Origin: a virus
DNA length: 64,000 nucleotides
Virus record (IMG/VR): IMGVR_UViG_3300028610_000246
Strand: one strand, 5' to 3'
Position 1 is the stretch's first letter, and each line of letters opens with the position of its first letter. A model generated the notes under the pieces. That model did no database searches and had not been told where the DNA came from. It saw only the letters and a program-made list of their open reading frames with translations. Position numbers and translations under genes: made by a program. Positions 6,001 through 52,952 of this stretch are shown one piece after another.

Positions 6001-7888
6001 AAATCGACCACAAGACGACCACCACGGATGATGTATTGCCATGCCTTCATGAGTAAATGTATCAGAGGGCTGGCCGCCCTCTTCCAATATATCACGAGAC
6101 TTACATCCGCGCTGACGTCCCAAATCTTCAACGTGTCTTAACGTATCAGTAACGTTCATGGCGAAATTTCTCCTACTACGACCGAAAGATATTTTCCGAT
6201 CATAGGTATATTATACTGCGAGATAACAGCAATGTATACAAGTTCCTTAACTGGTGATCCATCATATACTATAAGATTTAGAAACAAGACTACGTAGAGC
6301 TATTGCGCCTCCGTGTTGATAGCAATAATTTCTTTCATCAATAATTACTATGGCAGGCCTAGTACACCTATATACTCTACCCTTTATATCTCGCCAATAA
6401 ACAGACTCCCTATTAGACGAGCATCTAGGATAACGATACTTTCTCTTTTTTCGGAATTTTGGATCAATCCATTTAGCTTTCATGTAATCGGTCCGAAATT
6501 CTCACCAATTATGTTGCCATGCTCGTCTTCGACCACAGTAGGTTCGGGCTGATCTGAGAAGTCATGATCGACAATCTTAAGATCGAAGACGTGTGGAAAG
6601 AGATGTCTCTCGAATGTATCACTTCTCTTCTTTACAAATACTCGACCAGAACTTGATGCTTTTTGTGGTCGACGCCAACCCTGTAACACGAACTGTGTTC
6701 CGTCTGGAGCTTTGAGTATGGTGCCGATTACTACCTCAGTACCGTCACTCTTTCGTACTAATCTACCTGCACTCATGACGTTCTCCTTAATTTCTATACA
6801 TTTTGTGATTATATCGTACCCGTTGCCAGATGACAATCCACATAAACGGAATCCAAATGGCTAGGGCGAGTAGACCTATAACAATTAACAAGATGTTCAT
6901 GACAATCTCCCTTAGATATCATGCCACTATTATATACTATCATAGGTTAATAGCAATGTATACTAGATTTTTATATGAGGTACATATCCAACTCGCGTTA
7001 TTTCCACTACATTAAATGCACTAAGTGTATCATTGTATAATTTAACACATAATACTCCATCATCAATAATAACTCTCCATTGTTTTTCATCTATAGGAGC
7101 ATTACCATCGGTAATAGTATACACATCACTAAATAATTCATTCATGTCGGTGATTCACCATCGTTGTGTATAAGATATCGATCTACTGCACTACCCAGAG
7201 TCTTCCTGTGTTTGGCTATATCTGAGTATAGACCGTGCCTGACATGATTAATGTAGTCAATGGCCGATATTACCACCTCTCTCTCAAAATCGTCCATCTG
7301 AGAGCCCGAAGGTCCATCACTCGTATGAAGTGAAACATCCAAAGGTCCAACATCTTTAACCATAACCTTTTCTCGCATCTTCTTCGTTATCAAAAAATTG
7401 ACATAACCAATAATTAGGCGGATCACTATCTAGATTGATACATTGCTTACTATACTCATCAGTAAGTGTATCTCTATACTGACGAACAGCATCCCGAAGG
7501 TCCACAGCGCTGTATTCACCACAAAACATAGCTTTTGCACGATTACCTGTTGCATGATAACCTTCTACCCATAACGTAATTCTCATAGCTCCAACTTTAT
7601 AAGCCTCTGTATATTACGTAGAATATTTCGTAATCGACCTATCTCTTGCTCATACTCTAAACAAATGGTTAATATCGCATTATGATCTGCTATATATGGG
7701 CCGACAGTTCCAGTGAGTTCGCTCTGTATAGATCTAGCCTTTATACCGTATTTATTAGCTATTTCTTCTGCATATGAAGTGTTATGACATAACATAGTTG
7801 CATTAATTTTTTTACAGACCTCAGCTAGATTGTGTGTTTTGCCGCACCCATACGGGCCTATAACAAACACATCCGAATACCTATTCAT
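3096..7888 (-). CDS. Second run of small early hypothetical genes (about 18 ORFs; 7583-7888 has a P-loop-like GPYGCGKT)
   Basis: Co-oriented abutting ORFs from the ORF track; 3329-3757 resembles a common small phage protein family (IFGTGH motif). Confidence 0.7.
6210..6238 (-). promoter_or_regulatory. Promoter TATACA-17-TATAAT
   Basis: Exact 17-nt spacer, in the gap upstream of ORF 5854-6159. Confidence 0.75.
6934..6962 (-). promoter_or_regulatory. Promoter TATACA-17-TAGTAT
   Basis: In the gap upstream of ORF 6480-6836. Confidence 0.6.
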
Positions 7889-8053: not shown

Positions 8054-8116
8054 CTCTACTTTACTCCGTTCAGAATGCTCAGTACAGTTATATACTAGAG
8101 GAGAATAGTGGACTAC
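8054..8116 (-). repeat. ~60-bp palindromic cassette, copy A
   Basis: Close match to copies at 25645-25712, 30128-30184 and 52804-52856; the left arm of the palindrome is degenerate here. Confidence 0.85.
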
Positions 8117-8733
8117 TACATATTCTCTTCATGATGACATTCACTACACTCGTACTTAATAAAGTCTTTACCGTCTGGAGTAGTCTCTATATCTTGTGCT
8201 TGAAGCGTTATCTTGCCGCACTCAGGACATTCCATTGGATCAGCTGCTAGTTTCACTGCCTGAGCTGTTGCCTTCATAAATTCTGTAGCCATAGCTAAGT
8301 TATCCTGATCGTTATACCATCGATTAAGTCCAGAAGTATGCGGGAGTACTACTATACTAATGTCATAAAACTTTGATTTTGGTGCAAGCCTTACATTCAT
8401 ATCCATCCATACGAATGGTTTAACACCCTTTAAACCAAACGCATTACTGACCACTTGACCAAGAGCTAATATACTGACTGGTTCATCTGTGTCTAATCGT
8501 TCCAATAGTTCAAATGCCTTAGCCCGTGGGTTTGGAAATGTATCGCCGAGCTCGAATAAATTTCGTAGGGTGAATAGGTCCATGTACTCGTCTATGTCCA
8601 GACCGGTCATCTTCCAAAGTCTTTCACCTGACGTATTAGGAATTTTCGGGTTTAACGGTGTACTCATGTACGGATCGTTTATACCGACTATTACGAATTT
8701 GGCCATCATCTTATCCTTGGCTGATAGCAACAA
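8116..8733 (-). CDS. Uracil-DNA glycosylase-like superfamily protein with C-terminal Zn ribbon
   Basis: VIVGINDP...SGERLW, ILALG and VVLPHTSGLNRWYN resemble UDG-fold motifs; CPEC...CSEC tail. Confidence 0.55.
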   Translation of the reverse strand: MLLSAKDKMMAKFVIVGINDPYMSTPLNPKIPNTSGERLWKMTGLDIDEYMDLFTLRNLFELGDTFPNPRAKAFELLERLDTDEPVSILALGQVVSNAFGLKGVKPFVWMDMNVRLAPKSKFYDISIVVLPHTSGLNRWYNDQDNLAMATEFMKATAQAVKLAADPMECPECGKITLQAQDIETTPDGKDFIKYECSECHHEENM

Positions 8734-10122: not shown

Positions 10123-10541
10123 ACGTGAGTCTCTCCGAATGGATCGATTACGACAACCCTCTTACCAAATGCTTTAGCATATCTTACGGTAGCCCATGTG
10201 CCGCTACGCGTTATTTCGTTGAGTTGAAGAGGTGTTGCTATTAGAATATCTGTAGCATCCACTATATCATGATTACGAGCTATATAGGGTTTAGGAGTGG
10301 ATATTTCTTGGAAATTCTTACAATCAGCTCCAAATTTAGTATTTTCCGGCGGATGATCCCAAATCTTAAAATCGAATACTTCGGCTAGATCGTGACATTG
10401 TTTATCTGAGCCCACACATACACCGTGATGCCATCGAAATTCGCCCGACATCTTATAATAACACAACATGATCTTAGCTAGAGCCGTATGTTGGGCTATA
10501 GTCATACCTTGTCGAGTACCTGTGAAGCCGATTTCAATCAT
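10119..10541 (-). CDS. SLOG-superfamily (DprA/Smf/YspA-like Rossmann fold) protein
   Basis: IGFTGTR, HGxCxGSD, ARNHDIVD, SGTWATVRYA motifs. Confidence 0.7.
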   Translation of the reverse strand: MIEIGFTGTRQGMTIAQHTALAKIMLCYYKMSGEFRWHHGVCVGSDKQCHDLAEVFDFKIWDHPPENTKFGADCKNFQEISTPKPYIARNHDIVDATDILIATPLQLNEITRSGTWATVRYAKAFGKRVVVIDPFGETHV

Positions 10542-10547
10542 AGGTAT

Positions 10548-10576
10548 ATTCTATCACAAATTAACACGAATGTATA
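10548..10576 (-). promoter_or_regulatory. Promoter TATACA-17-TAGAAT
   Basis: Directly upstream of the SLOG gene. Confidence 0.75.
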
Positions 10577-10718
10577 CTAGATCTTTAATCGATGAGCCCT
10601 TTAGAAGGTGATAACGATTCCATAACACTACCGCCTCGCTTCTAGAATTGGCTTTTCGCTCTGGACGGTTCTTTACCATCGAGATAATATTCGACATTAC
10701 CACCATCTAAAGAGCCTT

Positions 10719-13273: not shown

Positions 13274-13456
13274 AGTAGCTCCGTAAATTCATGATCACTA
13301 GCTCAAATCAACACTGCTGGATAAGTAGAAGATTCACGACTGATGCAAGCCGCACAGTTTATTTCCAGCATGCACCCATTTCTAGCTTATGGGCTGTCAC
13401 ATGAGTCTACCCAGACCAAAGGGCATGTAACCGCATTCGATATTTAACATGTATAT

Positions 13457-13485
13457 ATTCTACCATGAAATAGTATGAATGTATA
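13457..13485 (-). promoter_or_regulatory. Promoter TATACA-17-TAGAAT
   Basis: Just downstream of the endolysin stop, facing the next leftward genes. Confidence 0.7.
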
Positions 13486-13493
13486 CTGAATCT

Positions 13494-13964
13494 TTAAATG
13501 AGGCCTTCTATGGGATGTAGACCTGGAATATATATTGTGGCACCCGCTTGAGATCTATAGGCTGTAAGTTCTTCTAGGCGAATAGTCTGGTCATCCCAAC
13601 GAATACCGCAATGTACCCAAGAGCCAAGTTCATGGATAACTTGATCATATGGAAGGTTCATTGACTCAATTAATTTGGCTAATTCTAGAGGTGTAACTTT
13701 GTTACATCTCATATCGGCCGCACATCCAAATCGATGGGCCGACGTCTTCGATCCACCTATTAATGTATTTAGCAGTTCTGGACGAAAGCCAGACGTTATT
13801 GTAATAGGAGAGTCTAATTTTGTTCTTAATGGTTGGACTATTGTCTCTACTAGACGAATGATATTATTTTGGATATGTAGGGGTGGCGTCATATCGATAC
13901 CATTACGTACTGCAGTTTGTGACACCAAAAACTCTTCTAACTTGAAGTTCGTGCTTATAAGCAT
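13494..13964 (-). CDS. Peptidase M15A-family endolysin
   Basis: ITSGFR...GGSKTSAHRFGCAADM...WVH Zn-binding His/Asp/His pattern. Confidence 0.85.
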   Translation of the reverse strand: MLISTNFKLEEFLVSQTAVRNGIDMTPPLHIQNNIIRLVETIVQPLRTKLDSPITITSGFRPELLNTLIGGSKTSAHRFGCAADMRCNKVTPLELAKLIESMNLPYDQVIHELGSWVHCGIRWDDQTIRLEELTAYRSQAGATIYIPGLHPIEGLI

Positions 13965-21350: not shown

Positions 21351-21355
21351 GAGTT

Positions 21356-21520
21356 AGTTCAATGAGTCGTAGTGCCGTCCGAAAAGACAACGGATAGCGG
21401 TTACATGTGCTGAAAGTCGGAGATTGCACCCGACCCGGCTCATTGGGCTTTTAAGAACTTGGGAGCGGGTCGCAATCGCCTACCAGCGAAAGTCGTTCAC
21501 CCTGACGCGACTCGTTCCCA
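21356..21520 (+). ncRNA. Candidate structured RNA, two domains
   Basis: 14-bp closing stem (21356-69/21436-49) with inner hairpin and possible pseudoknot; 13-bp stem (21461-73/21507-19); G-U pairs fit the + strand. Confidence 0.5.
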
Positions 21521-21554
21521 TTTAATTTAAAGTAATTGATAAAAAGAGAGTATT

Positions 21555-21773
21555 ATGAGTATTATAAGTAAGATTGGATATACTCCAAGACAGGCTGCAT
21601 ATGCTATTACTATTCAAGGAATTGCTAATGCAACGGTTTGTCCTAATGAGCATCTAACTGGTGGCGATGATTTAACCCCTAATGAATTAAAGCAAGTTAC
21701 AATCCAATTAACCAAACTCCATAATCAATTGCTCAATAAATCTGGATTAGATGGTGTAGAAATAACATGTTAA
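21555..21773 (+). CDS. Hypothetical protein
   Basis: ORF with RBS. Confidence 0.6.
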   Translation: MSIISKIGYTPRQAAYAITIQGIANATVCPNEHLTGGDDLTPNELKQVTIQLTKLHNQLLNKSGLDGVEITC

Positions 21774-21792: not shown

Positions 21793-22104
21793 ATGAAATA
21801 TCTAAAACTCTTGAAAAAGTATTTATTCGTATTCGTAGGGGCTGTTTTGTTCGGTATGGCTGCAATCAAAGTTAAGTCCGCCCAAAGATCTGAAAATAAA
21901 ATGTCTCAGAAATTACGTGAATTAGCAGAAGCAGGTATTGATGATCAAGATAAGATTATAGCAAAGAACGTAAATGATCTCAGAAAGGCACAAGCTCATG
22001 CTTCAAAGGTGAAGAAAAATGCAATCAAAAAACTCGATAATATTTCTAGCAACAGTGAAAGTGTTGGTAGTCTGCTCAATGACTATAATCGTGACAGGGT
22101 GTAG
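21793..22104 (+). CDS. i-spanin (Rz-like) candidate
   Basis: N-terminal TM helix followed by coiled coil. Confidence 0.55.
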   Translation: MKYLKLLKKYLFVFVGAVLFGMAAIKVKSAQRSENKMSQKLRELAEAGIDDQDKIIAKNVNDLRKAQAHASKVKKNAIKKLDNISSNSESVGSLLNDYNRDRV

Positions 22105-22486
22105 TTCATCTCCAACGTTAATTGAATTTAAAGAAGATCCAATAGAGATAAAGGCCGAAGGTCCACTCGATAAATGTATTTGGCCTAAATTACAGGAAAC
22201 TGAACTCGACGATAACACTATTATTTATATGAATGCTGAGGGGTTAAAAGCCCAAAGGTCCTGTCAAGTAACTGAGCAAGGAAATTACGAAATTGCTAAA
22301 GACAATGCAAAATCAGTAGATAATGCTGTCAATGCATTTAATGCTCTAATAAAGAAATCAGAAATACATCATCAGCATGCACAAAATGAACTCGATCGTG
22401 TTGAAGATGAACGAAAGAGTAAAGCCATGGAAGTACTGACTTATCAGGGCTTATTAGCTCTAGTACTAATAGCAATAGCTCTATGA
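22019..22486 (+). CDS. o-spanin (Rz1-like) lipoprotein candidate
   Basis: Overlaps the preceding gene; VTGC lipobox; hydrophobic C-terminus. Confidence 0.5.
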   Translation: MQSKNSIIFLATVKVLVVCSMTIIVTGCSSSPTLIEFKEDPIEIKAEGPLDKCIWPKLQETELDDNTIIYMNAEGLKAQRSCQVTEQGNYEIAKDNAKSVDNAVNAFNALIKKSEIHHQHAQNELDRVEDERKSKAMEVLTYQGLLALVLIAIAL

Positions 22487-22869
22487 ACAGACGTGAATTA
22501 ATATTAGCAATATCTGCTAGTGCAGTAGTTACTGCTGAAGGTTTGTGGCTACCTAGCAGTAAGTTAATATCTATATCTAAAAATCATTTAATTTTAAGTG
22601 AAAGATACATAAGTCTTGTAGATGACTATACGTCTAAAGTATTATGTTCTGTATTACGTAAGGTTGGAGCAGTGAGTATTAAAGATGATGTAGTTAATTT
22701 GACTTTTCCTGAAAACATTGATAATAGTGGTACAATTACTAGTATGTATGCAGGTAAAGTAAAAATCATAGATTCATTTGATACAGAACTAATCCTAGTT
22801 CCAGGTATGACTGTAGATGTTACGATTAAAGATTTAATACCCGAAGTAAAGCTTAATTTATTAATATGA
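22483..22869 (+). CDS. Hypothetical protein with RR-containing N-terminus
   Basis: MNRRELIL resembles a Tat signal; otherwise unassigned. Confidence 0.5.
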   Translation: MNRRELILAISASAVVTAEGLWLPSSKLISISKNHLILSERYISLVDDYTSKVLCSVLRKVGAVSIKDDVVNLTFPENIDNSGTITSMYAGKVKIIDSFDTELILVPGMTVDVTIKDLIPEVKLNLLI

Positions 22870-25648: not shown

Positions 25649-25712
25649 TCTCTACTTTTCTCCGTTTAAAACTACTAGTATAGTTATATACTAGCTGAGA
25701 ATAGCAGACTAC
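25645..25712 (-). repeat. ~60-bp palindromic cassette, copy B (antisense to local genes)
   Basis: CTAGTATA-gtta-TATACTAG core; GTAGTC...GACTAC ends. Confidence 0.85.
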
Positions 25713-25720
25713 ATTAAATT

Positions 25721-25795
25721 TGGGGCGCTGACGATTACTTTGAGGAAGCCCAAGTAAAAAGTAAGGTTAATCTTGTTTAACTAGTCAGTGCCCCA
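25721..25795 (+). ncRNA. Candidate three-way-junction leader RNA
   Basis: TGGGGCGCTGAC/GTCAGTGCCCCA 12-bp stem enclosing two hairpins, ending 18 nt before the carbamoyltransferase ATG. Confidence 0.45.
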
Positions 25796-25813
25796 TTCAT
25801 TAGGGAAATTACA

Positions 25814-52798: not shown

Positions 52799-52803
52799 TC
52801 TAG

Positions 52804-52856
52804 TTTACTCCGTTTAAAAGTACTAGTATAGTTATATACTAGCAGAGAATAGCGGA
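52804..52856 (-). repeat. ~60-bp palindromic cassette, copy D, supplying the chaperone RBS
   Basis: Full palindrome; GGAGTAAA shortly before ATG 52798. Confidence 0.85.
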
Positions 52857-52952
52857 GTGCAAACTATAGCACTCGCCACGAGTAGTCATGCTTAGTAGCA
52901 TTATTATGGTATTAAAACAGTTCTCTAGTCTGATAATCTAACAGGTTATTGA

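Follow-up and report, generated by a model that had tools for sequence, protein, structure and literature searches.

The window analysed in this study, i.e., the whole 64,000-nt stretch of the IMG/VR virus record IMGVR_UViG_3300028610_000246, contains a 204-nt gap (21351-21554) that separates the gene of a 100-aa membrane protein from a 72-aa ORF (P0001), which is followed by two genes of spanin-like appearance (Table 1). The earlier note had described the 100-aa product as holin-like; two strong hydrophobic segments, a charged C-terminus and the spanin-like genes downstream make this name plausible, although no match was obtained in Pfam or PHROG. Homologues of this protein in seven related contigs are 78-82% identical, and its only cultured relative, with 35% identity, belongs to the Marinobacter phage PS6. 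The phage itself, which is uncultured, is a siphovirus; its tape measure is of the lambda type, and it encodes a GpJ-like tail protein of 3470 aa. The idea of an N4-like phage, which had come from the 3470-aa ORF, was rejected based on the assignment of this ORF and the type of the tape measure, and no phage RNA polymerase was seen. According to the helicase, the nearest cultured relatives are phages of Acinetobacter, Xanthomonas (Xp15) and Rhizobium, which show 36-40% identity. Replication genes that encode a polymerase, an exonuclease and a helicase surround the gap; the helicase gene is located downstream of the spanin-like genes and, in the sister phage L004, straight after the spanin-like gene. 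The G+C content of the gap region is 52-57% versus about 40% for the window and the phage. On the plus strand, the gap folds into two independent domains, D1 and D2, with a minimum free energy (MFE) of -66.2 kcal/mol and a z-score of -3.67, and the fold of the minus strand is unremarkable (z = -1.31).

Table 1. Genes and RNA features at the locus (positions refer to the window).
Feature	Position	Strand	Basis or remark
Holin-like small membrane protein gene, 100 aa	21048-21350	+	ORF list; stop codon 21348-21350
Domain 1 (D1), 94-nt three-way-junction RNA	21356-21449	+	Fold z-score, pairs kept in L004, identity versus neutral sites
D1 P1, 5' strand	21356-21369	+	14 bp with 21436-21449; 14/14 pairs intact in L004
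D1 P1, 3' strand	21436-21449	+	Partner of 21356-21369
D1 P2 hairpin	21375-21400	+	3 + 4 bp, UAG bulge, 9-nt A-rich loop
D1 P3 hairpin, GUCGG/CCGAC	21416-21434	+	9-nt loop
Candidate pseudoknot arm GUGC	21407-21410	+	Proposed partner GCAC, 21426-21429
D1 conserved junction strand	21401-21415	+	Inside the 22-nt block 21396-21417, identical in L004
Domain 2 (D2)	21461-21519	+	Closing stem of 13 bp, 21461-21473/21507-21519, around two small hairpins
D2 U-rich tail	21520-21532	+	Directly 3' of D2
P0001, 72-aa ORF	21555-21773	+	Separates the RNA from the lysis gene that follows; window only
103-aa ORF, N-terminal membrane anchor and coiled coil	21793-22104	+	i-spanin-like or lysis regulator
155-aa ORF, lipobox (VTGC) and C-terminal membrane anchor	22019-22486	+	Unimolecular-spanin-like

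The earlier note had proposed that D1, starting 5 nt past the stop codon of the membrane protein gene, consists of a 14-bp closing stem (P1), an inner hairpin (P2) and a second hairpin, GUCGG/CCGAC (P3). These parts were borne out, as was the start of the domain, even though the exact register of P2 was ambiguous in RNAalifold. The assignment of the RNA to the plus strand, which the note had based on the G-U pairs, also holds; P1 includes three U-G pairs, which on the minus strand would be A-C mismatches. When D1 was folded alone and compared with shuffled sequences, its MFE was -32.7 kcal/mol (z = -2.69) and none of the 200 shuffles was as good, while the z-score of the minus strand was -1.38.

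For D1, the window was compared with one homologue only, positions 1343-1436 of L004 (SDBT01044285.1), and, because just two sequences are known, the covariation rests on a single pairwise comparison. The two differ at 16 of 94 bases, 13 of which lie in helices and three at unpaired positions. Nevertheless, all 30 of the proposed pairs are still standard pairs in L004, including ten that had changed, seven of them on one side and three on both sides, i.e., in a compensatory manner. P1 accounts for six of the one-sided changes and one two-sided change (A-U to G-C), P2 retains 7/7 pairs with a single U-A to U-G change, and in P3, two adjacent pairs changed on both sides from U-A/C-G to A-U/U-A, so that the stem reads GAUGG/CCAUC. 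In a simulation with 16 random substitutions, all of the pairs survived in 0.16% of the trials (P = 0.0016), and in 0.03% of the trials when 13 substitutions were forced into the stems; shifting the partner columns by one to three positions lowered the pairing to 28-43%. The identity of D1 between the two phages is 83% (78% for the paired and 91% for the unpaired bases), and a 22-nt block across the junction is invariant. At the four-fold degenerate sites of five flanking genes, by comparison, 85/152 positions (56%) are identical, against which both the whole D1 (p = 3e-8) and its unpaired bases (p = 9e-6) are significantly more conserved. Moreover, wobble pairs are exchanged with Watson-Crick pairs in a way that preserves pairing on the plus strand and would produce mismatches on the minus strand. 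Because of the retained pairs, the identity above that of the neutral sites and this exchange on the plus strand, D1 is, as judged from one pairwise comparison, a genuine structured RNA of the plus strand that is under purifying selection.

The inner architecture of D1 is less clear. The earlier note had proposed an H-type pseudoknot in which GUGC at 21407 pairs with GCAC at 21426. The two arms are complementary, and both are unchanged in L004, which is why covariation is silent on the candidate pseudoknot, whether for or against it. The GCAC arm directly adjoins (0 nt) the 3' strand of P3, i.e., the third loop would have zero length, which we judge to be a sterically awkward geometry. RNAalifold preferred a nested helix (21370-21373/21409-21412) that extends P1 and shares two bases with the candidate arm GUGC; under this fold, a U-G to C-G change would account for one of the three differences at unpaired positions. 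Another GUGC, at 21372-21375, offers a third possible pairing partner inside D1. Within D1, firm support is thus limited to P1 and P3, and the interior pairing is ambiguous.

D2 has an even lower fold z-score (-4.91), and its counterpart in L004 has the same three-way architecture, in which the closing stem is retained through compensatory and wobble changes. The first hairpin of D2 is unrelated between the two phages in both sequence and length, and the loop of the second one, UUCACCC, is conserved. In both sequences the domain is followed by a U-rich tail with six U in 8 nt after one A. The stem is 13-14 bp long in both, and what would be the loop of a terminator is a branched insert of 33-45 nt; terminator scans of the window and L004 did not call D2. 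It can be described as terminator-like in a loose sense, and efficient termination is unlikely at this place, with essential genes lying downstream. The covariance model of D1 gave D2 only about 10-12 bits. A similarity between D1 and D2 around GAAAGUCG is present in the window and absent in L004, and since it is not common to both, it is probably coincidental. In the window, the P3 loop and the 3' strand of D1 are complementary to the 5' strand of D2 over about 13 bp within 21414-21485 (GAUUGCACCCG with CGGGUCGCAAUC). The alternative duplex that would form between the domains has -26 kcal/mol and is stronger than 99% of the shuffles (p 0.011), but is absent from L004 (p = 0.34). This complementarity was also the source of a spurious match to a miRNA precursor of Rfam. 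Both domains are found in L004, in which the 72-aa ORF is absent, and together they are one two-domain module that lies in the sense orientation between the holin-like and the spanin-like genes.

Seven related contigs were recovered by protein-led searches with the flanking membrane ORF, and L004 came from a metagenome search. In L004, the module occupies the same site; it starts 5 nt past the stop codon, and its end is about 16 nt away from where the next gene starts. Five relatives (L003, L005, L006, L007 and L011) have neither the RNA nor the 72-aa ORF, and in these RNA-less relatives the two flanking genes overlap or are 1-2 nt apart. In the contigs compared, the RNA module is accessory, as the window and L004 carry it and five relatives lack it. 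In a tree based on a concatenate of five proteins, the window and L004 were sisters (support 100/99) and, with a midpoint root, they were nested inside the RNA-less lineages. This placement favours a single gain of the module, as one gain would be the simplest history. One of the close relatives, L011 (JASJBC010000015.1), is a 20.9-kb contig that was binned in an Acidimicrobiia MAG, which is probably a binning artefact rather than evidence for the host.

When the region was compared by blastn with 50,697 phage records, no match was obtained. Within the limits of scans for exact or degenerate motifs, no further D1 was found in IMG/VR with an 18-mer, a 27-position pattern, a 16-mer or an exact 25-mer of the window, nor was one revealed by three protein-led locus searches of IMG/VR or, apart from that in L004, by those of genome and metagenome collections. 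The 16-mer scan of IMG/VR returned eight chance matches, which were rejected by the covariance model. The 27-position pattern was also absent from the contigs of the GTDB genomes, and the covariance model R1 detected no further copy of D1 in the window, in all of the loci or in the two whole records. As regards a trans-acting RNA with seed pairing, no target that is complementary to the conserved single strands of D1 was found within the window.

No promoter was called upstream of D1 in the window or in L004. Because of this, and because the space behind D2 in L004 is too short for a promoter and the essential helicase is encoded further along, it can be inferred that the module must be transcribed within a polycistronic mRNA and read through. 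Among the genes that follow, P0001 appeared to be an orphan in a word-based search, but HMMER revealed a real family of proteins of 65-97 aa that share 35-49% identity and the motifs TPR(E/Q)AAY and QLAKLHNxLLDxSGLDG. It had no match in Pfam or PHROG, and its AlphaFold model was uninformative (pLDDT 47). The possibility that the RNA is a leader of P0001 was rejected, as L004 has the RNA without the ORF, and L012 and L013 have homologues of the ORF without a D1-like RNA upstream. The RNA and the 72-aa ORF are independent accessory modules; if, however, L004 had lost the ORF recently, the RNA could still be the leader of that gene. A second accessory gene specific for the window at the same hotspot as P0001 is P0003, a 128-aa ORF (22483-22869) that has no counterpart in L004 or the other relatives. 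The 155-aa ORF overlaps the 3' end of the membrane-anchored coiled-coil ORF; it carries an N-terminal lipoprotein signal with the lipobox VTGC at residue 25 and has the layout of a unimolecular spanin.

Several other intergenic elements were observed in the window. A 63-nt cassette with the palindrome CTAGTATAGTTATATACTAG occurs in three copies that are 78-89% identical (8055-8117, 25651-25713 and 52799-52861), one of which lies directly upstream of a cytosine-modification operon; these copies look like a shared promoter or operator cassette. The early region on the minus strand contains intergenic repeats of 50-67 nt that end in AATGTATAC(A/T)AG (849-898, 2825-2874, 6191-6260, 6915-6974, 10529-10598 and 13438-13497), which are probably repeated regulatory sites. 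Another candidate for a three-way junction, with a long stem and two hairpins, is located at 25718-25797, upstream of the modification operon. It is not a detectable homologue of D1, as the D1 model gave it about 10 bits.

The earlier note could not assign the RNA to a known family, and this still stands, as none of the 4227 families of Rfam 15 matched anywhere in the window at the gathering thresholds. When the regions of the window and L004 were scanned permissively, with E up to 10, the highest scores were 12-18 bits versus thresholds of 36-88 bits, no family was common to the two phages, and the matches were inconsistent and at the level of chance. Several known types of element were considered and rejected. 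ARAGORN found no tRNA genes, and a tRNA or tRNA-like structure was dismissed on this result, on the lack of CCA after D2 in L004 and on the length of P1, which is 13-16 bp rather than 7 bp. In the hammerhead core, stems I and II are linked by CUGANGA, stems II and III by GAA and stems III and I by a single base other than G. In D1, by inspection, the first junction strand is UAGUG (5 nt), the second has 15 nt with GAAA at its end, and the third is C; with no CUGANGA and no Rfam match at E up to 10, a hammerhead was rejected. A stimulator of readthrough or frameshifting for the holin-like gene was discarded as well, as a further stop codon in the 0 frame follows four codons (window) or one codon (L004) after that of the gene and there is no slippery heptamer. 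The same applies to group I or II introns, MITEs and terminal inverted repeats, for which neither an Rfam match nor, by eye, inverted ends or a target duplication were found.

The reading that we favour, which could well be correct but is put forward tentatively, is that of a co-transcribed accessory RNA that would be cut by the host RNase E or RNase III, leaving D1 as a stable, partner-binding RNA, or that would serve as a processing element between cistrons. Owing to the two long terminal helices and the A/U-rich single-stranded linkers that flank them, the module would be open to attack by host endonucleases, with RNase E cutting in the linkers or RNase III acting on the stacks of P1 and P3. 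By such cuts, the holin cistron would be uncoupled from those downstream, and D1 would be freed as a compact RNA of about 95 nt that resists nucleases. With its near-invariant junction and loops, this RNA might adopt a specific tertiary fold and bind a protein or another, hypothetical, partner, while the role of D2 would be mainly structural or 3'-protective. Neither D1 nor D2 sequesters a ribosome-binding site, as these sites are free in both the window and L004, and the constrained folds of the two phages revealed no shared alternative fold or antiterminator. Of the three functions that the earlier note had offered, the riboswitch, in its usual form with a switching P1, is therefore disfavoured by the stability of P1, the lack of a shared alternative fold and the unmasked ribosome-binding sites, while the ribozyme and the processed small RNA could not be told apart. 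What speaks against the favoured reading, which is argued from anatomy, is that the stems are branched, unlike the classical RNase III sites of T7, and that D2 with its U-rich tail fits an attenuator equally well as a 3'-protective hairpin.

Among the rival explanations, a passive structural insert, i.e., a moron or mobile relic or a set of hairpins that stabilise or terminate the mRNA without any sequence-specific function, is rather unlikely. Selection would then act just on tight folding, which would keep the 185-nt untranslated gap from exposing the operon to Rho or nucleases. Its position at an accessory-gene hotspot, where the window-only P0001 and P0003 adjoin, agrees with such an origin, as do the U-rich runs after both long stems and the G+C content, whose excess over that of the phage suggests a foreign source. 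However, an insert of this kind fails to explain why the unpaired bases are more conserved (91%) than the paired ones (78%) and the neutral sites (56%), or why the 22-nt junction block is invariant. The contrast between the highly conserved unpaired core of D1 and the variable interior of D2 is the usual pattern of an aptamer and its expression platform. A cis-regulatory sensor, in which the D1 aptamer and a terminator-type platform in D2 would tune the read-through from the holin-like gene to the spanin-like and replication genes and hence the timing of lysis, is also consistent with the location of the module upstream of genes in the sense orientation, with the D2 stem that is followed by six U in 8 nt in both sequences and with the strong pairing of the 3' part of D1 with the 5' strand of D2 in the window (p ~0.01). 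We consider it unlikely, as that pairing is lost in L004, the constrained folds share no antiterminator and P1, with its 14-16 bp, is much too stable to be gated by a ligand. Moreover, the branched insert is atypical of an intrinsic terminator, neither scan called D2, an efficient terminator would cut off the helicase of L004 and no riboswitch of Rfam matched.

That D1 might belong to a class of RNA not yet described, whose core for catalysis or ligand binding it would form, and that a phage lineage acquired it to control or time the lysis genes downstream of the holin, is distinctly unlikely. Its narrower form, an undescribed class of self-cleaving ribozyme that would cut the mRNA between the holin-like and the downstream cistrons, is very unlikely, even though D1 is compact (94 nt) and branched, its junction and loops hardly vary, it may contain a pseudoknot, and its long closing stem lies between genes of a phage operon, where known small ribozymes are common. 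A new class has a low prior probability, no ribozyme model of Rfam matched at E up to 10, the 5-nt UAGUG stands where a hammerhead needs CUGANGA, the pseudoknot is a candidate only and D2 would be left unexplained. Hardly any probability is attached to an element that acts at the DNA level, such as a single-stranded hairpin for replication or priming or a recombination site. The surrounding replication genes (polymerase, exonuclease and helicase) and the A/T-rich stretch after D2 in the window would suit it, but the exchange of G-U and Watson-Crick pairs is restricted to the plus strand, as is expected of RNA, five relatives replicate without the element and there are no iterons or repeats.

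To our knowledge, phage genomes encode thousands of predicted structured RNAs, of which almost none has a known function. For a family of two members, the present case is unusually clean, as each substitution in the stems preserves pairing and the conservation of the unpaired core is far above that of the neutral sites. The insertion is discrete, accessory and placed at a defined point of a lysis cassette, and the relatives that naturally lack the RNA can be used as controls. If D1 were a ribozyme, an aptamer or a decoy for a protein, this phage, whose DNA is also hypermodified, would have an additional RNA-level layer in the control of lysis or host takeover. As a mere processing or stability element, D1 would be a tidy but ordinary example.

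The long helix that joins the 5' and 3' ends and closes a small head of several hairpins resembles tRNA-like modules and those of bacterial Y RNAs, and the second hairpin of D2, which abuts the 3' strand and has the 7-nt loop UUCACCC, is similar to a T-arm. However, the would-be T-loop has C instead of the conserved A58, and there was no match to the tRNA, Y RNA or YrlA models of Rfam. The put RNAs of the lambdoid phage HK022 are cis-acting antiterminators that consist of two simple stem-loops and follow the early promoters closely. The module is also a two-domain sense RNA in a long siphovirus operon that is read through and masks no ribosome-binding site, but its domains are branched, it lies at an accessory insertion site and no set of downstream terminators is known. 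Small self-cleaving ribozymes, such as the hammerhead, twister, pistol, hatchet and HDV-like ones, occur in phage and bacterial operons. D1 is of similar size (50-100 nt) and likewise has a junction of several stems that is closed by a stem, its core is conserved, it may contain a pseudoknot and it lies between genes of a phage; it differs in having no covariance-model match and no hammerhead core, and catalysis by D1 is a candidate function only. Hammerheads are common in phages (PMC3088659). A survey of the IMG/VR phage contigs reported many candidate RNAs that are tRNA-like, contain terminators or are located upstream of genes, and thousands of candidate structured RNAs of phages have already been catalogued (PMC10690425). 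Like these candidates, the present RNA is a conserved intergenic structure of phages that is backed by covariation. The element is a very small family from two phages, of moderate complexity, that is new with respect to Rfam 15 and the motif scans used here. In anatomy, D1 and D2 are like the processing structures of RNase III and RNase E, as they are stable helices on the sense strand between the cistrons of a phage operon, with lengths of 14 and 13 bp, A/U-rich single-stranded flanks and no masked ribosome-binding site; if the closing stems stacked on the abutting P3, they would be extended to about 18-20 bp, or about 19 and 17 bp for the two P1+P3 stacks, compared with a helix of about two turns at an RNase III processing site. 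The R-sites of T7 are intercistronic RNase III structures of phage polycistronic mRNAs; each is one hairpin that has an internal loop but no branches, and their unpaired sequence is hardly conserved. In contrast to these sites, with which the comparison is one of anatomy alone, the module has two three-way junctions, and that of D1 is almost invariant.
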